This document shows, in pieces, positions 4,445 through 62,338 of a DNA stretch of 62,338 nt. Numbering within the stretch: the first letter of the stretch is position 1; the number at the start of each line of letters is the position of its first letter. Both the position numbers and the translations under genes were made by a program. Where the stretch lies: positions 1-62,338 of the forward strand of contig CAYMUI010000056.1 of the NCBI GenBank assembly GCA_964393645.1, given 5' to 3'. The notes beneath the pieces are model-generated. The model was not told the DNA's origin. It saw only the letters and a list, made by a program, of their open reading frames with translations, and searched no databases. Origin of the DNA: an uncultured Desulfobacterales bacterium (GTDB lineage Bacteria > Desulfobacterota > DSM-4660 > Desulfatiglandales > JALVZP01).

Positions 4445-5671
4445 TTAAAAGACTTCGCTAAACCATCTTTTCATGGTATTCATTATTTTCAAAAATATGT
4501 TGGAATCTCTTATTCTAAACTTCCTCTTCTTTTTTCTTTCTCTTGCCCCGTACATAAGAAGTCCCAATGCCGTGGCATACATTGGCTCTTTTGCTATTTC
4601 AGATCTTCCTCCCACATCCTTTGGATAGCCTATTCTTGCAGGAACACGAAATACCCTTTCTGCTACTTCCACTATGCCATTCAATAGCGCTGAACCTCCC
4701 GTTATGATAACACCGCAGTTGAGATCTACATCTACCTCGGCTCTTATAAGGTCTTCGTACAACAGTGAAAATATCTCCTCCACTCTCGGTTCCAATATTT
4801 CGGCAATCCTTTTTTTTGATACCTTTCGAGTACCGTTTTCATTAAAGCCTTTTATCTCTACAAATTCATCTTCAGATACCAAAGAAACAGAACCGCAACC
4901 GTACTTTTTCTTTATCTCTTCCGCTTCTTTCTGAGATGTCTTCAGCCCTACAGACAGGTCATAGGTAAGATTATTACCTCCTAAGGGTAACACAGAGGTA
5001 TGTCTTATTGCACCCTTTGAAAAGACCGCCATATCCGTAGTTCCACCGCCCAAGTCAATAAGTATAACATTTCCTTTTTTTTCATCCTCTTTGAGAACGG
5101 CATCACTTGAGGCTATAGCTTGGAGAATTATGTCACAAACATCTAAGCCGGCGTTGTTCACGCACTTTATAATATTCTGGGCAGCTGTGACAGCAGCGGT
5201 TATTATGTGAAGTCTTACACCAAGTCTCACACCAGACATGCCTATTGGATTTTGGATTCCTTCTTCATCATCTACTTTGTACTCTTGCACTATAGTCTGA
5301 ATTATTTCTCTATCCATGGGTATAGCCACAGCACTTGCCACATCGATTACCCTTTCCAGATCTTTTTTGGTTATCTCTTTGTGTTTAATAGGGATGGAAC
5401 CATCGCTATTAAAGCTTTTTATATGACCACCAGCAATTCCCACATAGACTGCGTCTATTTCACAACCTGAGTCCTTTTCCGCTTTTTCTACAGCTTTTTC
5501 TATAGAACGAACAGTCTCATCTATATCTACAACCACACCCTTCCTTAAACCGTTAGACGGATGAGTTCCCATTCCGACGATTTCTAAGCTATCGTCCTCC
5601 CCCACTTTTCCTACTAATGCACAGATCTTTGTAGTTCCCACATCAAGACCTACAACAATATCTTTATCCAT
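4445..5671 (-). CDS. ftsA: Cell division protein FtsA
   Basis: GLDVGTTK, GLRKGVVVDI, IDLGGGTTD, ITGGSALL; start set to the ATG at 5671 behind GGAG. Confidence 0.98.
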   Translation of the reverse strand: MDKDIVVGLDVGTTKICALVGKVGEDDSLEIVGMGTHPSNGLRKGVVVDIDETVRSIEKAVEKAEKDSGCEIDAVYVGIAGGHIKSFNSDGSIPIKHKEITKKDLERVIDVASAVAIPMDREIIQTIVQEYKVDDEEGIQNPIGMSGVRLGVRLHIITAAVTAAQNIIKCVNNAGLDVCDIILQAIASSDAVLKEDEKKGNVILIDLGGGTTDMAVFSKGAIRHTSVLPLGGNNLTYDLSVGLKTSQKEAEEIKKKYGCGSVSLVSEDEFVEIKGFNENGTRKVSKKRIAEILEPRVEEIFSLLYEDLIRAEVDVDLNCGVIITGGSALLNGIVEVAERVFRVPARIGYPKDVGGRSEIAKEPMYATALGLLMYGARERKKKRKFRIRDSNIFLKIMNTMKRWFSEVF

Positions 5672-7372: not shown

Positions 7373-8741
7373 TTTGTAAAAATCTTTCTCCTACAAGGTA
7401 TATATTTCCGGCTCCGAGGGTAAGGATCATATCGCCTGGTTTTGCTACAGACATAAGTATAGAAAGGGTTTCGTCTAATCCTTTGCTATATATCACATTT
7501 TTGTGACCATACTCTTTTATAGCGCGTGCAAGTCTTTCTGAAGTAACGCCTTCGATGGGAGGCTCTGAAGCAGGATAAATAGGATTCACGATAAGCACAT
7601 CTGCGTAATCAAAAGAGGTGACAAACTTGTCAAAAAGCGCTTTTGTTCTGGAATATCTGTGAGGTTGAAAAGCCACTATAAGCCTTTTATCTGGCCACCA
7701 TTGTTTTATGGTCTTAAGAGTGGCTACAATTTCTGTAGGATGGTGTCAATAATCATCCATAACAAGTATTTTTCTTACTTCTCCTTTTATCTGAAATCTC
7801 CTTTCAAGACCGCCTATATTTCTGAGACCCTTAGTTATGGAATTTATGTCTATTTCCAGCTCCATGGCAACTGCAATAGCAGCAAGAGCATTCAATACAT
7901 TGTGAACCCCGGGCATTCCAACAAATATCTCGCCCAAACTTTTTCCTTTATATACAAGCTCAAACTTGGTGCCAAAGCCCTCTTTTCTCAAAAAATGCCC
8001 TTTTATGTCTGCATCTGTTTCTAAACCATATGTAACATACCTTCTCTTCACATAAGGAATAATCCTTCTTATCTGCTCGTCATCTAAACACAGAACAGCC
8101 AATCCATAGAAAGGAAGCTTGTTTACGAATTCAACAAAGGAATTTCTAAGGTTTTCCATACTCTTGTAGTAGTCCATATGTTCGTAGTCTATGTTTGTTA
8201 CCACAGATATAACCGAAGAAAGTCTTAAAAATGTCCCGTCACTTTCGTCTGCCTCTGCTATGAGAATGTCTCCTTGGCCAAGTCTTGCGTTTGACCCGTT
8301 CCATATACTCAATCTCCCACCTATGATAACCGTAGGATCCATCTCTGCTGCATTAAGTATAGATGCGATCATGCAGGTGGTAGTGGTCTTTCCGTGAGCA
8401 CCTGACACAGCTATCCCGTATTTAAAGCGCATGAGTTCCGCTAACATTTCAGCTCTTGGAATAACAGGAATAGCCTTTTTTCTTGCCTCAACTAACTCTG
8501 GATTTTCATCCGAAACAGCCGAAGAATAAACCACTACATCTACTCCATCTATGTGATTAGTGCTGTGGAAATATTCTATCTTTGCACCTAAGGACTCTAA
8601 CCTTTCTGTTGTGGGGCTTTTCTTTAAATCGCATCCACTGACTTCATATCCCAGATTTATAAGAAGCTCTGCGATCCCGCTCATTCCTATTCCACCTATT
8701 CCAACAAAGTGCAGTTTTTTTACCTTCTTAAGAAGTTTCAT
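7359..8741 (-). CDS. murC: UDP-N-acetylmuramate--L-alanine ligase, interrupted by an in-frame TGA at 7746-7748
   Basis: [28 protein letters not shown]; reading through the TGA gives DDY*HHPTEI...[10 protein letters not shown] in one frame (460 aa). The two ORF-track pieces (7746-8741, 7359-7676) are in the same frame. Confidence 0.93.
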
Positions 8742-30091: not shown

Positions 30092-30889
30092 TTACTCCTT
30101 GCTTAAAAACTCCAGTGCCTCTTCAACACTGGCGTTTTTGTGAACTATCATGGACAGCGCCTTTACCATCTTAGCAGGATTTCTGTGTTGAAACACATTT
30201 CTTCCTATGGATATGCCAGATGCTCCTGCCTCTATTGCACCTTTCACCATCTCAAAAACCGCTTTGTCAGAATCCATCTTAGGTCCACCAGCTATCACAA
30301 CAGGGACATGACAACCTTCCACTACTTCTCTAAAAGAATCTGGGCTTCCGGTATAGGACACCTTTACCACATCTGCACCAAGTTCGGCTCCGACCCTTGC
30401 GGCGTGTTTTACGACTTCGACAGCATATTCGTCTTCTATCTTTCTACCCCTTGGATACATCATCGCCAAAAGTGGCATTCCCCACTCATCTGCTATCTTT
30501 GCCACCATTCCTAAGTCTTTGAGCATCTCTCTCTCATTATCGTCGCCTATGTTTATATGAACAGAAACTCCGTCAGCACCAAGCCTGATTGCCTCCTCTA
30601 CTGTGCACACTAAGGTTTTGGAATTGGGTTCTGGTGAAAGAGAGGTGCTGGCTGACAGATGAACAATAAGACCCAGATCAGGGCCGCTTCCTCTGTGCCC
30701 TTTTACAACCATCCCTTTATGAAGCACAACAGCATTAGCACCTCCTTCTGCCACCTGGGCAACCGCTTTTTTCATGTTAGTAATCCCGTATATCGGCCCC
30801 ATACTCACTCCGTGATCCATGGGAACAATCACGGTCTTCTTCGTGTCTCTATTAAAGATCCTTTCAAGTCTTATTTCTTTACCTATCAT
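30092..30889 (-). CDS. aroA': 2-amino-3,7-dideoxy-D-threo-hept-6-ulosonate synthase (class I aldolase, archaeal shikimate entry)
   Basis: [42 protein letters not shown]; same operon as aroB'; start at MIGKE behind GGAGG. Confidence 0.9.
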
Positions 30890-31946
30890 CTTTGCCTCCA
30901 TAAAGCTTTTGTCTTAGATAATGATCCGCTATGGTTATCTTCACCATTGCTTCCAACACGGGCACTATTCTTGGAATAGCTGACACATCAAACCTTCCCT
31001 TTAATTTAAGTTTCACAGGATTTCCATTTTTATCAATCGTATTTTGTTCCTTAGATATAGAAGGGATAGGCTTAACCGCTACTCTAAGGACTATATCTTC
31101 ACCATTAGAAATTCCTCCAAGGATACCACCTGCATTGTTAGAAGTAAATCCTTCCGGAGTAATGGGGTCGTTGTTTTCTGAACCCCTCATTCTTGCTGAT
31201 CTGAATCCTGCACCAATTTCTACTCCCTTCACCGCCCCTACACTCATAACCGCTTTTGCAAGATCTGCGTCAAGTTTATCAAACACTGGCTCCCCAAGTC
31301 CAGCAGGACATCCTTTTACTAATATCTCCACGATCCCACCTATGGAATCTCCTGCTCTTCTCACATCTTCTACAAGTCTTTCCATTCTTTTGGATGCCTC
31401 TAAGTCAGGACACAAAAACGGACTTTTATCTAACAGGTCCAATTCTACCTTCTCTGCTTTTATTCCTCCAAGCTCCAAGGTATAACCTATTACCTTTATC
31501 CCTGCCTTAGCTATTATCTTATCTGCAACCACTCCAGCAGCAACCCTGGCAGCAGTCTCTCTGGCAGAAGATCTTCCCCCACCTCTATAGTCCCTGTGAC
31601 CGTATTTTTTAAAGTATGTATAATCTGCGTGTCCTGGTCTAAATATGTCTTTAATTTCTTCATAAGGGGTGCTGTCCACATCTTGATTTTTTATCAGCAC
31701 GGTTATAGGAGAACCTGTGGTAAGCCCTTGAAACACCCCTGATATTATCTCGACCTGATCTTTTTCTTTTCTGGATGTGTCCGAAGGAGAACGGCCAGGT
31801 CTTCTTTTTGCCATTGCTTCGTCGAAATCTTTCTCAGAAAGTGGGATCTTAGAAGGGCATCCATCAATAACAACGCCTATTCCCCATCCATGGGATTCTC
31901 CAAAAGTGGTGATTCTAAACACCTGACCGAAAGAATTACCCGGCAT
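30879..31946 (-). CDS. aroC: Chorismate synthase
   Basis: [46 protein letters not shown]. Confidence 0.99.
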
Positions 31947-41739: not shown

Positions 41740-44496
41740 ATGAGCAAAGAAAACATAATAACAATAAACGGGCAAGAGTTTAGCTTTGAGCCAGGTGAAA
41801 CCATCTTAGATGTTGCCACAAGAAACGGGATATACATACCAACCTTATGCTACCTAAAAAGAGCTACTCCAACAGGTGCGTGCAGAATATGTGTGGTGGA
41901 AGTAGAGGGAGCCAGAAACTTGGTTGCTTCTTGTTCTACACCTGCCTCTGCTGGAATGAAAATAAAAACAGACAGCCCGCGAGTAATTGAAGCAAGAAGG
42001 CTTAATTTGGAATTGCTTATCTCTTCAGGCAATCATAACTGTCTGGTTCAGGACCTGGATCAACAGGAATGGACAGATTTTCAGCTTAAGAGCATGAAAA
42101 CAGAACCCGAACAAATATGTCCCGCATACGGAGAGTGCAGACTTCAAGACCTTGCAATACGCTACAGGGTAAAACCCAGATTTATTCCAAAGGAGAGCAA
42201 ATACCCAACAGAGGAGAATCCATTTTTCATTAGAGACTTTTCCAGATGCATACTGTGTGGCCGCTGTGTTCAGGCGTGTAACGAAATTCAGGTAAACAAT
42301 GCTATAAGTCTTGGCTACAGAGGAGCTGAATCAAAAGTTGTAGCAAAAGGAGATTATCCACTTACCAAATCAGACTGCGTGTTCTGTGGAGAATGTGTTC
42401 AGGTATGTCCGGTAGGAGCACTTGTTCCAAAAAGTGTTATTGTAAACAAGGTGCTTCCAAATGAAGTAAAAAAGATTAGAACCACCTGTTCTTACTGTGG
42501 AGTGGGATGTCAGATATATCTGCATGTAAAGGACAACAAGGTAGTAAAAGTAACAGGTGTTGAAGAGGCTGCTCCAAATTATGGAAGCCTGTGTGTAAAG
42601 GGAAGGTTTGGATATGACTTTATAAATCATCCTGACAGACTCAAAAAGCCTCTTATAAAGAAAAACGGTGAATTCAAAGAAGCGACATGGGATGAAGCCC
42701 TCGATCTTGTAGCCAACAAGCTAAAAGAAATAAAAGAAAAATTTGGCCCAGATTCCATAGGATTTCTTACCAGCGCAAGAGCAACAAACGAAGAAAATTA
42801 CATCGCTCAAAAATTTACCAGAGCGACTCTGGGAACCAATAACATAGACCACTGCGCTCGTCTCTGACACTCCTCTACCGTGGCAGGTCTTGCCGCGGCA
42901 TTTGGCAGTGGCGCAATGACCAACACTATTGCTGACTTAGAAAAAGCAGAGGTTATCTTAGTAACCGGATCAAACACTACTGAAAACCATCCTGTTATAT
43001 CCTCCTATATAAAGAGAGCAGTTACTCAAAAGGGAGCAAAACTGATAGTAGTTGATCCGAGAAAAATTCCTCTTACTAAATTTGCAACCATATGGATGAG
43101 ACAAAGACTTGGTACAGATGTAGCGTGGATAAACGGAATGATGCATGTAATCATAAAAGAAAACCTCCATGACGAAGAATACATCAAAGAAAGGACCGTT
43201 GGATTTGAAGAAATGAAAAAGGTGGTAGAAAAATATACGCCAGAGTATGTGGAACAGATCACGGGCATCCCTAAGGAAAAGATAATAGAAGCAGCAAGAC
43301 TTTACGGAAAGGCAAGCCGTGCTTCTATCGTATATGCAATGGGAATAACACAGCATATAACAGGCACTGACAATGTTAAATCTCTTGCTAATCTCGCTAT
43401 GCTTTGTGGAAATGTGGGCATTGAGGGGGGCGGAGTAAATCCTCTAAGAGGTCAGAACAATGTACAAGGTGCTTGTGATATGGGAGGACTTCCCAATGTT
43501 TACTCTGGATATCAAAGAGTGGATGATCCTCAGGTGAGAGAAAAGATGGAAAAGGCATGGGGCGTAAGTGCTCTTCCTGACAAGGTTGGTCTTACTGTTA
43601 CAGAAATGATGGAGATGGCGTATAAAGGAGAATTAAAAGCGCTTTATATAATGGGAGAAAACCCGATGGTTTCAGATCCTGACCTCAACCATGTAAAAGA
43701 GGCTCTTCAAAGATTAGACTTTCTCGTGGTTCAGGACATATTCTTGACAGAAACTGCTCAACTTGCTGATGTTGTGCTTCCTTCTGTTTCTTTTGCTGAA
43801 AAAGAAGGGACCTTCACCAATACAGAAAGAAGGGTGCAAAGAGTAAGAAAAGCAGTATCTCCGCCAGGGGAAGCAAAGGAAGACTGGAAGATACTTTGCG
43901 AAATCTCTATGCGTATGGGTTATCCCATGAACTATGGAAGCGCAAAAGACATCATGAGGGAAATAGCCAGTGTGACTCCGTCTTACTCTGGGATAAGCTA
44001 CGAAAGGATAGAAAAAGAGGGAATTCATTGGCCATGCCCGTCTTCTGAACATCCAGGAACACCTATTCTTCATGTAGGAAAATTTGCTTCAGGAAAAGGG
44101 GTATTTCACGCAATTGATTACATACCACCTGCAGAACTACCAGATGAGGAATATCCCTTCTTCCTGACCACAGGAAGAATCCTTTATCAATACCACACAA
44201 GGACGATGACCATGAGAACGCCTTTGAACGAGATAAGTCCAGATTGTTTTGTAGAAATTTCCAGAGATGACGCACGCAAACTTGGGATAAAAACGGATGA
44301 TCTTATAAAGGTGGCATCCAGAAGAGGAGAAATAACAGCAAAGGCAGTTGTTACCGACAGAGTAGACAAAGGCACAATTTTTATCCCGTTCCACTATGCC
44401 AATGCAGCAGCAAATATTCTAACCAACAAGGCTCTTGACCCAGTAGCAAAAATTCCAGAGTACAAAGTATGTGCAGTGAAGATAGAAAAGGCATAG
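41740..44496 (+). CDS. fdhA: Formate dehydrogenase alpha subunit, selenocysteine at TGA 42865-42867 (918 aa)
   Basis: N-terminal Fe-S domains (CRICVVE; CILCGRC; CVFCGEC), CSYCGVGC, then [14 protein letters not shown]; the two ORF-track pieces are in frame; LRGQNNVQG and molybdopterin-binding tail. Confidence 0.96.
42878..42898 (+). promoter_or_regulatory. Bacterial SECIS element of fdhA
   Basis: CCGTGGCA-GGTCT-TGCCGCGG hairpin beginning 11 nt after the TGA; GCAGGUCU core as in the E. coli fdhF SECIS. Confidence 0.88.
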
Positions 44497-44506
44497 GAGG
44501 CTTAAA

Positions 44507-45004
44507 ATGACACATGAAGAACTTTACCAACTTAATCCTGATTTGACTCCAGAAGTGATGCAGGAGATAGACAAAGTTATAGAAGAAAACATTCACAGAC
44601 CAGGTTGCCTTATTCCTGTGCTTACTAAGTGTCAGGAAATACTCGGTTACATTCCTGTAGAACTGCAGGAATACTTAAGTGAAAGGCTAAACATACCAGG
44701 AAGCAACATCTACGGGGTTGTAAGCTTTTACTCTTTTTTTTCTATGATTCCTAAGGGAAGACACACGATAAAAATATGCGAAGGAACTGCTTGTTATGTG
44801 CAAGGAAGCTACAGAATACGGGATTTTATATGTAACGAATATGGACTTGAACCAGGAGGTACCACTAAGGATAGAAGATTCTCGCTGCAAGTAGTTAGGT
44901 GTCTTGGTGCGTGTGGTCTTGCACCAGTTATGATGGTGGATAATGACACATATGGAAAATTAACTATCGATAGTGTGAAAGAGATACTGGACAGATATGA
45001 GTGA
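44507..45004 (+). CDS. NuoE/HydC-like [2Fe-2S] subunit
   Basis: GVVSFYSFF, ICEGTACYVQG, VRCLGACGLAPVM. Confidence 0.95.
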   Translation: MTHEELYQLNPDLTPEVMQEIDKVIEENIHRPGCLIPVLTKCQEILGYIPVELQEYLSERLNIPGSNIYGVVSFYSFFSMIPKGRHTIKICEGTACYVQGSYRIRDFICNEYGLEPGGTTKDRRFSLQVVRCLGACGLAPVMMVDNDTYGKLTIDSVKEILDRYE

Positions 45005-45031: not shown

Positions 45032-46906
45032 ATGTCAAAGCTTACAGTACAAGATCTCGACAAGATAAAAGAGAATATGCAAAAGGAAATGTTGCTTAGA
45101 GAAGGGAAAAAAACGCCTGCTGCAAAGCATAGATTACACCTCATGCTTTGTAGTGGTACAGGATGTCAAGCCTCTGGCAGTAAAGAAGTAAAAAAAGCCT
45201 TAGAAGAAGAACTAAAAAAAGCAGGACTTGATAAGGAAGTACTCATTGTGGAGACAGGTTGTAACGGCTTTTGCGCTCAAGGGCCCGTTATGGTGGTTCA
45301 TCCTGACAACATATTTTACCAAAAGTTGAAACCAGAACATGCCCCTCTGCTTGTCGAAGAACACTTTCTTAAAGGAAAACCAGTAGAAAAGCTCATGTAC
45401 AAAGATGCTGCCACCAAAAAGGTGATCCCACTGTTGGATCAAATTCCGTTCTTTTCAAATCAAATGGCCATTGTGTTAAAAAACAGAGGGCTTATAGATC
45501 CGGAAAACATAGATGAATACATAGCAAGAGATGGATACAAAGCCGTTGCAAAAGCTCTCTTAGATATGAGCCCTGAAGAGATAATAGAAGAGATAAAAAG
45601 ATCAGGGTTGAGAGGAAGAGGAGGAGCTGGATTTCCAACCGGACTTAAGTGGGAGTTTGCAAGAAAGGCCCCAGGTGATGTGAAGTATATAATCTGCAAT
45701 GCAGATGAAGGAGATCCTGGAGCATTTATGGACAGAAGTGTATTGGAAGGAGATCCTCATGCGGTGCTGGAAGGGATGATTATAGGAGCAAAAGCGATTG
45801 GTGCTATTAGGGGGTTCATATACTGCAGAGCAGAATATCCTTTGGCACTAAGAAGACTCGAAATAGCTATATCACAAGCAAAAGAATATGGTCTGTTGGG
45901 AGAAGATATACTTGGAAGCGGATTCAACTTCGACATTGAGATATATCAAGGAGCGGGTGCATTCGTATGTGGTGAAGAAACCGCACTTATGGCCTCCATA
46001 GAAGGAAGAAGGGGAAATCCAAGGCCAAGACCTCCTTACCCTGCTCAAAAAGGGCTTTGGGGAAAACCAACAGTGATAAATAATGTGGAAACCTTTGCAA
46101 ATGTTCCAAAGATTATACTTAACGGTGGAGATTGGTTCGCGGGTATAGGCACGGAGAAAAGCAAAGGAACAAAAGTATTTGCGCTTACGGGCGATGTAAA
46201 CAACATAGGGCTTGTGGAAGTGCCCATGGGAACTACACTCAGAACCATAATATTTGATATTGGAGGAGGAATACCTAAAAAAAGAAAATTCAAAGCTGTC
46301 CAACTTGGTGGGCCTTCTGGTGGATGTATTCCTGAAAAGTATCTGGATACACCGGTAGATTACGAATCTATCACGGAGTTGGGGGCAATAATGGGCTCAG
46401 GCGGAATGATTGTTATGGATGAAAAAACATGTATGGTAGATATGGCAAGATTTTTCTTGAGATTTATCCAAGATGAGTCTTGTGGAAAATGTCCCCCATG
46501 TCGTGAAGGAACGGGAAGAATGCTGGAGATCTTGGACAGGATAGTGGAAGGAAAAGGAGAACCCGGAGATATAGAGCTTCTGGAAGAATTGAGTTACATG
46601 ATAAGGGATACAGCCCTGTGTGGACTTGGGCAGACAGGACCAAACCCGGTTCTTTCAACCCTGAGACACTTCAGAGAGGAATACGAAGCGCACATATACG
46701 AAAAGAGATGCCCTGCAAAGGTTTGCAAGGCATTACTAAAATTTGAAGTAGATGAAGACAAGTGCAAAAGATGTGGAATATGTTACAAAAATTGTCCAGC
46801 AGGAGCTATTGAATGGGAGAAGAAGAAAACAGCACGCATAATAAAGGACAAGTGTATAAAGTGTATGACATGTATAATGAACTGCCCAGCAGATGCCATC
46901 TTTTAA
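45032..46906 (+). CDS. NuoF/HydB-like NADH/FMN-binding subunit with extra N- and C-terminal Fe-S domains
   Basis: CSGTGC...GCNGFC, GLRGRGGAGF, NADEGDPGAFMDR, GAGAFVCGEET, GGPSGG, CGKCPPCREG, two C-terminal CxxCxxCxxxCP. Confidence 0.96.
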   Translation: MSKLTVQDLDKIKENMQKEMLLREGKKTPAAKHRLHLMLCSGTGCQASGSKEVKKALEEELKKAGLDKEVLIVETGCNGFCAQGPVMVVHPDNIFYQKLKPEHAPLLVEEHFLKGKPVEKLMYKDAATKKVIPLLDQIPFFSNQMAIVLKNRGLIDPENIDEYIARDGYKAVAKALLDMSPEEIIEEIKRSGLRGRGGAGFPTGLKWEFARKAPGDVKYIICNADEGDPGAFMDRSVLEGDPHAVLEGMIIGAKAIGAIRGFIYCRAEYPLALRRLEIAISQAKEYGLLGEDILGSGFNFDIEIYQGAGAFVCGEETALMASIEGRRGNPRPRPPYPAQKGLWGKPTVINNVETFANVPKIILNGGDWFAGIGTEKSKGTKVFALTGDVNNIGLVEVPMGTTLRTIIFDIGGGIPKKRKFKAVQLGGPSGGCIPEKYLDTPVDYESITELGAIMGSGGMIVMDEKTCMVDMARFFLRFIQDESCGKCPPCREGTGRMLEILDRIVEGKGEPGDIELLEELSYMIRDTALCGLGQTGPNPVLSTLRHFREEYEAHIYEKRCPAKVCKALLKFEVDEDKCKRCGICYKNCPAGAIEWEKKKTARIIKDKCIKCMTCIMNCPADAIF

Positions 46907-60230: not shown

Positions 60231-60379
60231 TCTTTCGAAAAAATTTTTTTAATTTTTTAAACATATATTTTCCTTCTGTTCAACCGAAAAGCGAATTTAT
60301 TATCCATAAAACATCGCTTAGCATTGACTTTATAACACAAAGAATATAAAAGAAAAAAAAATTCACAAGGAGGTTTTAA

Positions 60380-61681
60380 ATGGAACCTATCGTCATAAAA
60401 AACAGACAACAAAGTAAATTACGCATCTCTCCAGAATTTGCTGATATTTGCTTTACATGTGGCACATGTGCCAGTGGCTGCCCTGTTTCAGGTGTAGACG
60501 GAATGGATCCAAGAAAGGTGGTAAGGATGGCAGCCCTTGGATTAGACGATGAACTTATAGAATCTCGTTTTCCATGGATTTGTACCATGTGTGGCAGATG
60601 TGAGTATGCTTGTCCTCAAGGAGTAGAGATTACAGCCTTAATAAGGCGCATAAGAGGTTTAAGGGACAGGGATAAAGTGCCAGGCCCTATACACAAAGGT
60701 GTTGTAATGTGTCTTGAGAAGGGGAATAACCTCGGTATTCCAAAAGATGACTTTCTGTTTCTGTTAGCAGATGTGGGGAAAGAGTTGGAAGAAGAAGGTT
60801 TTCCAGGTTTTTATGTGCCCGTGGATAAAAAAGGAGCAAATATACTTGTTACTATCAACTCAAAAGAGCCTTTTGGCGAGCCAGACGACATGAAGTTTTG
60901 GTGGAAGATATTTTATTGTGCAAAAGAAGACTGGACAGTGCCTTCTGAAAACTGGGAAGGAGTAAACTGGGGTCTTTTTTCAGGCGATGATGAAGCAATG
61001 AAACAGATTGTAGGAAGGATAGTGGAAAACTTAGAAAAACTGGAATGCAAAACATTGCTCTTGCCAGAGTGAGGCCACGCCTATTATGCGACCAGGCTTG
61101 GTCTGCAGAAATGGTTTCCAGAAGTATTTAAGAAATACAGAGTCCTGTCAGTTCATGACCTTCTCAAGGAATATATTGAAACCGGAAGAATAAAAATAGA
61201 TAAATCCGTACACAAAGATCATAAGGTCACTCTTCATGATCCTTGTAACTATGGCCGTAGAAGCTATAAGGCATTTGGACACGGATATTTTGAAGAACCT
61301 CGCTGGATAGTCCAACAGTGCTGTGAAAACTTTGTGGAAATGCAGCCTAACAGAATGAATAACTTCTGCTGCGGTGGAGGTGGGGGTGCATGGGCAATGC
61401 CTTATGTGGCAGAAAGGGTATTTTACGGAAGAGTAAAAGCAAAACAAATAATGGATACAGGTGCAGATCTTGTGATTGCCCCGTGTCATAACTGTAGAGA
61501 TCAAATTATGAAATCTCTGGTAAAAGAATACAACTTAGGAGTAGAAGTAAAATATTTATGGGAACTTGTGGCTGATTCTCTTGTAGTAGAGCCATGGAGT
61601 GAAGAGGAAGTGAAAAAAGCCCATGAAATGAGGGATGCACAGTTTGAAAGAGACGGGATAGTGTTAGACGAAGAATTCTAA
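60380..61681 (+). CDS. HdrD/DsrK-like Fe-S oxidoreductase (4Fe-4S dicluster + CCG domain) with selenocysteine at TGA 61070-61072 (433 aa)
   Basis: CFTCGTCASGCP, CTMCGRCEYACP, then LLLPE-U-GHAYY; no other stop before HDPC, CCGGGGG, CHNC; ORF-track pieces 60380-61072 and 61334-61681 are in frame. Confidence 0.92.
61088..61106 (+). promoter_or_regulatory. Bacterial SECIS-like hairpin
   Basis: GC-GACCA-GGCT-TGGTC-T-GC; G-led apical loop starts 22 nt after the TGA; bulged U. Confidence 0.75.
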
Positions 61682-61687
61682 GCAATA

Positions 61688-61720
61688 GCGGATGTCCGCA
61701 CGGGCATCCGCCCGTCTTTT
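61688..61720 (+). terminator. Intrinsic terminator between convergent genes
   Basis: GCGGATGTCC-GCAC-GGGCATCCGC GC-rich hairpin followed by CCGTCTTTT. Confidence 0.7.
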
Positions 61721-61883
61721 AATTTAAAGAAATAATAAGAGGAAAACAGGACTCAAGCAAGGAAAGACTGTAAGCGTTCTTTTTAAGCCAGCGTTTATAT
61801 TCCCTCGCCAAGCAAGGATCATTAAATATGACAGATTCTCCTAAGAATTTAAGCTCTTCTATAACTCTCCAGTAAAAGTGCAT
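61719..61883 (-). CDS. Candidate small protein, 54 aa
   Basis: ATG at 61883 behind GGAGAAAGGAAG; MHFYWRVIEELKFLGESVIFNDPCLAREYKRWLKKNAYSLSLLESCFPLIISLN; no recognised family. Confidence 0.4.
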   Translation of the reverse strand: MHFYWRVIEELKFLGESVIFNDPCLAREYKRWLKKNAYSLSLLESCFPLIISLN

Positions 61884-62134: not shown

Positions 62135-62338
62135 ATGGCAAAAGCGAGAGTATACCGACACGATATTCGTTGTCCCCACTGTGGTTCTAACTGGTGTATT
62201 AAATATGGTCATGCCAATGGCAAACAAACCTACCGATGCAATGACTGTTTACACCGGTTTACTCCTCAGGCAACCCGACATGCTTATCCGAATCACATTA
62301 AACAGGAGGCGATACGGATGTATTGTGAAGGGATGAGT
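62135..62338 (+). mobile_element. IS1-family transposase N-terminus (InsA-like), truncated by the window edge
   Basis: Not in the ORF track. MAKARVYRHDIRCPHCGSNWCIKYGHANGKQTYRCNDCLHRFT...AIRMYCEGMS: CPxC...G..GKQ.YRC..C zinc ribbon followed by HTH start; purine-rich RBS GGGGGG. Confidence 0.85.

Follow-up and report, generated by a model that had tools for sequence, protein, structure and literature searches.

A predicted stand-alone HdrD/DsrK-like selenoprotein gene in an uncultured Desulfobacterales bacterium

The locus and its in-frame UGA codon

Analysis of a contig of an uncultured Desulfobacterales bacterium (CAYMUI010000056.1, assembly GCA_964393645.1) over a stretch of 62,338 nucleotides, referred to below as the window, showed the presence of a gene for an HdrD/DsrK-like protein that is split into two open reading frames (ORFs) by an in-frame TGA codon at 61070. 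This UGA is read here as a selenocysteine (Sec) codon, decoded with the aid of a selenocysteine insertion sequence (SECIS) hairpin at 61088–61106, and six independent lines of evidence agree in this: the alignment of homologues, the truncated gene calls, the TGA kept in 80 of 80 related loci, the coding signature, three independent sequencing runs and the decoding of Sec by the organism; the open frame past the codon and the covarying hairpin point the same way. They uphold the original prediction, made from the sequence of the window, in which the split ORF was taken as one selenoprotein gene. The features of the locus are the following.

60324–60350, plus strand: weak candidate for a sigma-70-type promoter, read from the sequence (TTGACT 60324–60329, spacer of 15 nt, TATAAA 60345–60350)
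60368–60373, plus strand: Shine-Dalgarno sequence AGGAGG, 6 nt 5′ of the ATG at 60380, read from the sequence
60380–61681, plus strand: coding sequence of the 433-aa HdrD/DsrK-like selenoprotein, UGA being read as Sec (domain matches, alignment, codon-position variability)
61070–61072, plus strand: UGA, predicted Sec codon U231 in the motif P-E-U-G-H-A (translation, homologue alignment, related loci, independent runs)
61088–61106, plus strand: predicted bacterial SECIS hairpin GCGACCA [GGCU] UGGUC(U)GC (folding, covariation, depressed synonymous variability)
61688–61721, plus strand: intrinsic-terminator-like hairpin of 10 bp (7 GC), followed by a T-run and beginning 7 nt past the stop codon

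The 5′ neighbour of the gene is dapF (Pfam DAP_epimerase) and the 3′ neighbour is the gene of tRNA-Ala(GGC), both encoded on the strand opposite to the selenoprotein gene. Since a terminator hairpin follows the gene and both neighbours lie on the opposite strand, it is predicted to be a single transcription unit in the window genome, in agreement with the earlier description of the gene as monocistronic and without a membrane partner. The surroundings are represented by housekeeping genes, namely dapF/dapA/dapB, genes of aromatic amino-acid synthesis and the dcw cluster. Genes of possible partners (hdrA, flpD, dsrC, dsrM and sel genes) were sought in the window and were not found among the 40 ORFs scanned; the gene dsrM, encoding the membrane diheme cytochrome b, is absent from the surrounding 25 kb. 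The promoter candidate at 60324–60350 was not returned by a consensus scan, its spacer being 15 nt. The Rfam scan at gathering thresholds gave the tRNA as its sole match, the SECIS hairpin belonging to no curated family.

The ORF 60380–61072 closes at the in-frame TGA 61070–61072, after which the frame stays open until the TAA at 61679–61681; translation through the TGA gives LLLPE-U-GHAYYATRLGLQ around the codon and a total length of 433 aa. Alignment with full-length homologues places Cys of the conserved block LLLPECGHAYYATR at the TGA column, in 13 of 15 aligned homologues (12 forms of the PECGH/PQCGH/PDCGG type together with distant forms), and Cys occupies the Sec position in about 92 of the 118 full-length homologues retrieved, which is what the original prediction had expected of them. 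P229, G232 and all ligand Cys of the ferredoxin and CCG domains are invariant in the alignment with the 15 homologues. The N-terminal fragment of 230 aa, used as a query, returned more than 100 protein clusters with lengths of 229–231 aa, or of about 308 aa with an N-terminal helix-turn-helix (HTH) domain, and 116 of the 120 clusters matching the fragment terminate in ...LLPE, a signature of gene callers halting at a conserved UGA.

A genome scan with one genome per GTDB species gave 593 loci encoding relatives, the best 80 of which were analysed. All 80 (64–95% identity) contain TGA at exactly the same codon, flanked on either side by open frame; they originate from metagenome-assembled genomes of Desulfobacterales, Desulfatiglandales and Desulfarculales, from strain NaphS2 and from Desulfogranum marinum. 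On either side of the TGA, third codon positions in these loci have an entropy of 0.9–1.4, and first and second positions one of 0.26–0.77. The nearest in-frame restart after the TGA is the GTG at 61334, 88 codons on, and the stretch between the two is clearly coding in its pattern, with amino acids that are conserved.

Contigs from three independent runs (hydrothermal-vent metagenomes) contain many synonymous differences from the window and none at 61070–61072; TGC or TGT at this codon, named earlier as an outcome that would speak against Sec, was thus found in none of them. A second in-frame TGA of the window, in a murC-like ORF, is read as GGA (Gly) by all three runs and serves as a positive control: since the same comparison shows that stop to be false, it is able to expose false stops. 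A sequencing error at 61070–61072 is ruled out by the three runs with this control, and a general recoding of UGA (genetic codes 4 or 25) is ruled out by the 15 of 47 long window ORFs that end in TGA. Decoding of Sec by the window organism is shown by a further gene of the window, predicted to encode a Sec-type formate dehydrogenase alpha subunit (FdhA).

The hairpin is 19 nt long and starts 15 nt past the UGA, with the apical loop at 61095–61098 and a bulged U at 61104; folded alone, the stretch 61088–61106 gives −9.3 kcal/mol (z = −2.7). The GGCU loop starts 25 nt after the U of UGA, its G26 being invariant and G27 nearly so. Under a rule of the bSECISearch type, the apical loop of a bacterial SECIS lies 16–37 nt from the UGA and carries G among its first positions, and both the distance and the loop G of the hairpin agree with this. 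Pairing is kept at 93% across 73 distinct sequences, with compensatory double changes in three of the seven pairs (33 cells), and the covariation score is 0.212 versus 0.090 ± 0.010 in shuffles, none of 500 reaching 0.212; in a control with the 3′ partners slid, covariation did not exceed 0.081. The commonest switch, from C-G to U-A (window positions 61093/61100; 19 distinct sequences), alters Gly to Ser (RLGL to RLSL), so that keeping the RNA pairing costs a substitution in the protein. The codons that form the stem, codons 6–11 after the UGA, show reduced synonymous variability.

Each of the 81 Sec forms folds at −6.4 kcal/mol or lower (mean −8.7), and 64 of them have the loop GGCU, while four of the five Cys forms (L081, L083, L084 and L085; L denotes related loci) are without the hairpin (0 to −2.6 kcal/mol). 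The HTH-fused Sec form L086, from another operon context, has a hairpin identical in sequence to that of the window.

The fifth Cys form, L082 (TGT; 4724–4771), keeps a hairpin, GCAACCCGGUUCGGGUUC at −7.5 kcal/mol, that is near-identical to the one of the Sec form L080. This hairpin appears to be a fossil SECIS left after a recent conversion of Sec to Cys.

The SECIS-like hairpin suggested at the outset is accordingly real in its compact form, 61088–61106, and not in the form of a long minimum-free-energy helix that includes the UGA. Such a helix, formed by the first 77 nt with the UGA itself paired, showed no compensatory changes and a covariation equal to that of shuffles across the 73 sequences, and was rejected.

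Protein architecture and the place of the selenocysteine

The domains of the protein, given below with their positions in the window, are those of an HdrC-like part followed by two CCG-type lobes, the first of them degenerate.

60443–60625, plus strand: HdrC-like ferredoxin domain, residues 22–82, with two CxxCxxCxxxC motifs (Pfam Fer4_8/Fer4_17)
60767–61225, plus strand: predicted degenerate N-terminal CCG-type lobe, approximately residues 130–282 (AlphaFold2 model, Foldseek, EtfD alignment)
61226–61507, plus strand: intact CCG domain, residues 283–376 (Pfam PF02754, 41.5 bits, a single stretch)
61589–61678, plus strand: C-terminal extension, residues 404–433, with a predicted helix at 408–425 (alignment, AlphaFold2 secondary structure)

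All eight Cys of the ferredoxin domain (C24/27/30/34 and C68/71/74/78) are invariant in the alignment, and the domain matches HdrC chains of the PDB at an E-value of about 1e-15. Likewise invariant are C289, C330-C331, C369 and C372 of the intact CCG domain, which are predicted to bind one non-cubane [4Fe-4S] cluster; its counterparts by alignment are the C-terminal CCG domain of HdrB and residues 637–712 of EtfD. The degenerate lobe (130–282) has no CCG match in the Pfam search, and residue 231 is the sole survivor of its five-Cys motif; residues 211–282 align with the first CCG domain of EtfD. Comparison of this lobe with the protein's own C-terminal CCG domain by hhalign gave a probability below 1%. 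The C-terminal extension was found in the forms without the HTH domain and is missing from the HTH-fused forms.

The best NCBIfam matches are HmcF (234.5 bits, residues 8–403), TmcB (195.5) and DsrK (172), collinear over most of the length, as expected of the HdrD/DsrK/HmcF/TmcB-like protein proposed earlier; none of the scores comes near its equivalog cut-off (750, 735 and 400, respectively). The AlphaFold2 model, built with the alignment, is a confident one, with a pLDDT of 86.5 and a pTM of 0.87, and is confident in the degenerate lobe as well. Its Foldseek matches are headed by mycobacterial EtfD (9OJN), followed by LutA, whole HdrB chains and HdrC; the HdrB chains align over about 300 columns, so that both lobes are covered. 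By its domain matches and its model, the protein is in effect a cytoplasmic HdrC-HdrB fusion of the HdrD type; its first CCG lobe is retained as a fold, without the cluster-binding motif.

A phmmer alignment (E 9e-9) matches U231 to Cys581 of EtfD, G232 to Pro582, H233 to His583 and A234 to Cys584, the posterior being about 0.8 over the motif, and U-G-H-A is by this alignment the degenerate CxxC of the first CCG motif (Cys78..Cys81 of HdrB). An assignment of E-U-G to the C-C-G pair of the lost motif was ruled out by the same alignment, the 58-residue spacing to C289 fitting CxxC. In EtfD, Cys581 ligates the cluster of the first lobe (D1), and His583 extends to the second lobe, where it supplies the remaining ligand of the non-cubane cluster (PMC13083937). 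This reach of His583 across the lobes would place the U-G-H loop at the lobe interface, beside the remaining non-cubane cluster.

DsrK, HmcF and TmcB have one CCG motif together with a strictly conserved Cys of the missing motif, contained in T/GECGH (PMC10861901), and it is the position of this Cys that Sec occupies, as had been proposed from the E-C-G-H motif. In the structure of DsrMKJOP obtained by cryo-electron microscopy, Cys329 of DsrK is non-ligating and persulfidated, with the DsrC arm on one side of it and the cluster on the other; a sulfur-relay role has been proposed for it, protons being probably relayed by His331 (bioRxiv 10.64898/2026.08.25.746951). No DsrK, HmcF or TmcB chain was found among the PDB sequences for direct alignment, and no ECGH paralogue was found in the window or in the best 80 loci. 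Because Sec maps to the CxxC remnant and to the position of DsrK Cys329, a non-ligating relay is favoured for U231; selenium as a cluster ligand is the less likely reading, Cys329 being non-ligating in DsrK. The original prediction had left it at Sec ligating the cluster or sitting beside it, and the second of these alternatives is thus preferred to the first.

Gene contexts, proposed mechanism and rival explanations

The relatives of the gene stand in several contexts, two of which are given with their coordinates.

L081 5495–13473, L084 5471–13288, L086 5326–13161 and L089 4504–11497: operons hycI-[HTH-HdrD-like]-hdrA(~1020 aa)-flpD-mvhG-mvhA
L063 4610–9305, and likewise L013, L015, L051–L053, L058–L061, L068, L069, L073 and L074: clusters of flpD, Fer4, Fer4_22 and FAD/NAD/[2Fe-2S] FNR-like genes, in which the Sec gene is the last

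The genes of HTH_17-fused relatives (61–67% identical, Cys as well as Sec forms) always come next after hycI and are followed on their 3′ side by genes for an HdrA-like flavoprotein of about 1020 aa and FlpD/MvhD, and then by genes for the small and large subunits of [NiFe(Se)] hydrogenase or for formate dehydrogenase. The context hycI-glpC-hdrA-flpD-mvhGA is the operon that Zhang et al. 2006 (PMC1794560) described as glpC-hdrA-frhD-frhG-frhA. In approximately 16–20 loci of the Desulfarculales type, the form without HTH comes, on the same strand, after flpD, genes for two Fer4 proteins and a gene for a FAD/NAD/[2Fe-2S] protein, a cluster which is a candidate for an NAD(P)H- or ferredoxin-linked donor module. 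Five loci (L017 2991–4435; L011, L016, L018 and L019) contain, directly upstream and on the same strand, genes of an HdrC-like (192 aa) and an HdrB-like protein (289 aa, two CCG), and in 22–27 loci the selenoprotein gene is divergent to genes of acyl-CoA dehydrogenase and carboxyltransferase.

Two further observations concern the HTH-fused forms. HTH_17 is a domain of the excisionase/MerR-like DNA-binding type, found here on a presumed enzyme subunit. In L086 gene callers split each of three genes, those of the HdrD-like, HdrA and FlpD proteins, which suggests that this locus encodes three selenoproteins in a row.

Since the relatives adjoin HdrA/FlpD/hydrogenase or FlpD/FeS/FNR-like genes, a soluble flavo-iron-sulfur module of the HdrA/MvhD or FlpD/FeS/FNR type is a more likely electron donor than a membrane cytochrome b. 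The donor had been called an open question; this holds insofar as none is encoded next to the gene, and is narrowed by the modules that relatives adjoin.

Taken together, these data would describe a single Sec-containing reductase of the HdrD/DsrK type with a non-ligating selenolate relay and a soluble donor, a reading to which we assign a probability of about 0.6. The U-G-H loop would lie at the interface of the two lobes, beside the substrate-binding "special" iron of the non-cubane cluster, by homology to Cys329/His331 of DsrK and Cys581/His583 of EtfD. Electrons would enter via the two cubane clusters and pass to the non-cubane cluster; the selenolate of U231, not bound to the cluster, would attack an S–S bond, which may belong to a disulfide, persulfide or trisulfide and may be held by a carrier protein such as DsrC. 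The sulfur would then be carried on U231 as an Se–S adduct, which may be reduced at the special iron in one-electron steps, with His233 relaying protons. Sec in place of Cys would speed the exchange steps, since its pKa is lower and it is superior both as nucleophile and as leaving group. The relatives and the lineage make the DsrC-trisulfide, or another trisulfide or persulfide bound to a protein, the obvious candidate for the substrate.

A narrower proposal, which we put forward tentatively and consider rather doubtful, is that the clade without HTH or operon represents a free-standing, soluble, Se-dependent persulfide/trisulfide reductase (acting, e.g., on DsrC-trisulfide), which docks in trans on modules of the HdrA/MvhD or FNR type and forms an Se–S (selenenyl-persulfide) intermediate at the position of DsrK Cys329. 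If so, the series from Sec through Cys to Ser/Leu would be a natural in vivo mutagenesis of the least understood step at a single non-cubane cluster.

Several points weigh against the relay reductase. No donor or substrate gene adjoins the selenoprotein gene in the window genome; hhalign of the degenerate lobe against HdrB-like proteins was not significant (probability below 1%); and the equivalence of U231 and DsrK Cys329 is inferred from motif identity, collinear hidden Markov model matches, the EtfD mapping and the literature. DsrK and TmcB give an "open" S = 1/2 electron paramagnetic resonance (EPR) signal in the absence of substrate, and it has been suggested that the conserved Cys may be a ligand of the cluster at rest (PMC10861901). 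About 22% of the full-length HTH-type homologues have other residues at the Sec/Cys position, namely Ser (~17), Leu, Gly, Ile, Val, Thr, Ala and Tyr (P0008, P0013, P0017, P0020, P0027, P0037 and others). Three loci of the Ser/Leu type were traced at the DNA level (L087 5922, L088 5925 and L089 5925, with codons TCC, TTA and TCG) and keep hairpin-like stems downstream, which suggests that such forms derive from Sec forms. The presence of Ser, Leu or Gly means that a redox-active residue is dispensable in some branches of the family, and this keeps alive, for some members, the alternative of a protein that only transfers electrons.

The EPR signal bears on another alternative, in which U231 is not a free relay residue and acts as a swinging Se–Fe ligand of the cluster, displaced by the substrate; we consider it improbable. 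Both FdhA and [NiFeSe] hydrogenases use Sec to bind a metal. U231 would descend from a cluster-ligating Cys, as it aligns to Cys581 of EtfD, a ligand of cluster D1, and His583 of EtfD, the equivalent of H233, does ligate the non-cubane cluster (PMC13083937). Against this, Cys329 is modelled as a non-ligating persulfide in all three states of DsrK, the extra ligand of the special iron being a small molecule (bioRxiv 10.64898/2026.08.25.746951), and the tolerance of some homologues for Ser, Leu and Gly at the position is hard to square with a structural ligand. The same tolerance of non-redox residues is among the arguments for an electron-transfer or redox-sensing module in place of a catalytic reductase, for example a thiol/persulfide sensor, with control of transcription in the HTH_17-fused relatives. 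Many close homologues carry the N-terminal HTH_17/MerR-like DNA-binding domain, genes of response regulators and histidine kinases are common among the family's neighbours, and the solved homologue EtfD uses the same fold for electron transfer only (PMC13083937). The window protein, however, is without the HTH domain, and the HTH-fused forms occupy the place expected for HdrBC inside the structural operons hycI-hdrA-flpD-mvhGA. Sec and SECIS, upheld in 80 species, argue for a kinetically demanding catalytic residue, and the supernumerary Cys372 is kept, whereas in EtfD a blocking ligand replaces such a Cys; a role in sensing or electron transfer seems unlikely to a similar degree.

Far less probable than either is a true stop at the TGA (split gene, pseudogene or assembly error), which would leave a ferredoxin-like fragment of 230 aa and perhaps a separate C-terminal CCG protein. 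The gene is split by callers everywhere, with hundreds of 230-aa clusters ending in LLPE, and the window does hold one demonstrably false TGA, in murC. Yet all 80 related species and all three independent runs have the same codon, homologues have Cys at its position, the downstream hairpin covaries, and a coding pattern with conserved residues fills the 88 codons before the next start at GTG 61334, where a restart would cost the CCG domain its first ligand, C289.

Other features of the window and comparison with known systems

The second selenoprotein gene of the window and its neighbours are located as follows.

41740–44496, plus strand: predicted molybdopterin formate dehydrogenase alpha (FdhA), with TGA at 42865–42867
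44507–45004: NuoE-like gene
45032–46906: NuoF-like gene

The in-frame TGA of FdhA at 42865 directly precedes a hairpin of its own, CCGUGGCA[GGUCU]UGCCGCGG. The association of FdhA with NuoE/NuoF-like genes suggests an NAD-linked or bifurcating formate dehydrogenase. The murC-like ORF 7746–8741 of the minus strand is interrupted by its in-frame TGA at 7746–7748 (VMDDY*HHPTEI); all three runs have C instead of A at 7748, giving GGA (Gly), and the murC stop is therefore no Sec codon and reflects either a wrong base in the assembly or consensus or a rare variant. The aromatic amino-acid cluster contains, both on the minus strand, genes of type II 3-dehydroquinate synthase (PF01959; 27198–28190) and of an aldolase of the DeoC/LacD family (30092–30901), which together suggest an archaeal-type (ADH/DKFP) entry into the shikimate pathway. 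A partial ORF at the window edge (62137–62338, plus strand), starting with MAKARVYRHDIRCPHCGSNWCIKYGHANGKQTYRCNDC, presumably represents the N-terminus of a zinc-finger InsA/IS1-type transposase.

The reduction of S–S bonds by a single non-cubane cluster and a lone Cys has only begun to be understood, with the biochemistry of DsrMKJOP in 2024 and a cryo-electron microscopy preprint in 2026, and many bacteria of the sulfate-reducer type place selenium at precisely that Cys position. A small, soluble protein of a single subunit may serve as a model in which 77Se or extended X-ray absorption fine structure (EXAFS) spectroscopy could reveal contact with the cluster, Sec, Cys and Ser variants existing naturally. 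Hundreds of database entries of the family are mis-called as 230-aa "ferredoxins" and orphan CCG fragments.

Among the known systems, DsrK of DsrMK(JOP) shares with the window protein the two cubane clusters, one CCG motif and the lone residue followed by Gly-His (GECGH versus PEUGH). It differs in having Cys and not Sec and in its dsrM partner, the window protein reaching an NCBIfam score of 172 where the cut-off is 400; as the last CCG ligand the window protein has Cys372, and many DsrK have Asp. The best NCBIfam matches are to two cytoplasmic subunits, HmcF of the Hmc and TmcB of the Tmc transmembrane complex, which likewise combine a single CCG with T/GECGH (PMC10861901), but the scores lie below 750 and 735, and the window gene has no hmc/tmc, cytochrome or membrane-subunit neighbours.

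Methanogen HdrB/HdrC and HdrD (PDB 5ODC and others) are similar in the HdrC part (27–32% identity) and, for HdrB, over both lobes; HdrB and HdrD have two complete CCG motifs and two non-cubane clusters, whereas in the window protein the C-terminal motif alone is complete. The closest solved structure, mycobacterial EtfD (PDB 9OJN), is the best match in sequence and fold, with a ferredoxin domain and two CCG lobes, and its C-x-H aligns with U-G-H. Unlike the window protein, EtfD is membrane-anchored, carries a heme b domain and a linear [3Fe-4S] cluster in the first lobe, and has shielded, non-catalytic clusters (PMC13083937). HdrD4 of Desulfobacterium autotrophicum HRM2, compared by description only, is a soluble Sec-containing protein of the HdrCB-fusion type annotated in 2009 (PMC2702500); its host belongs to Desulfobacteraceae, the lineage of the nearest relatives of the window protein.

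The closest likeness is to the "Fe-S oxidoreductase (GlpC)-like" selenoproteins of Deltaproteobacteria (PMC1794560), which have, as the window protein does, U-G-H, Fer4 and CCG domains (COG0247-type) and Cys homologues. The earlier statement that Sec-containing COG0247 proteins had already been predicted is correct: the family was listed in comparative studies from 2006 (PMC1794560, PMC1976440) and a 2026 review gives its Sec motif as "UGH" and describes nearly all such selenoprotein families as known from bioinformatics alone (PMC13188914). The window protein is 61–67% identical to proteins of the hycI-glpC-hdrA-flpD(frhD)-mvhG(frhG)-mvhA(frhA) operons, an arrangement identical with the five-gene operon known from Syntrophobacter and Desulfotalea (PMC1794560). 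Unlike the GlpC-like operon members, the window copy is without the N-terminal HTH_17 and has an extra C-terminal helix, and the operon with hdrA, frhD/mvhD, frhG and frhA that is typical, though not obligatory, for the GlpC family is absent around the window gene. The gene is accordingly a further member, in a stand-alone context, of a selenoprotein family known from bioinformatics since approximately 2004–2006, and the finding is confirmatory, not surprising. To what was known of this family the analysis adds a SECIS backed by covariation, the mapping of Sec to the CxxC remnant and Cys329, gene contexts that suggest a donor, and a natural Sec/Cys/Ser series.

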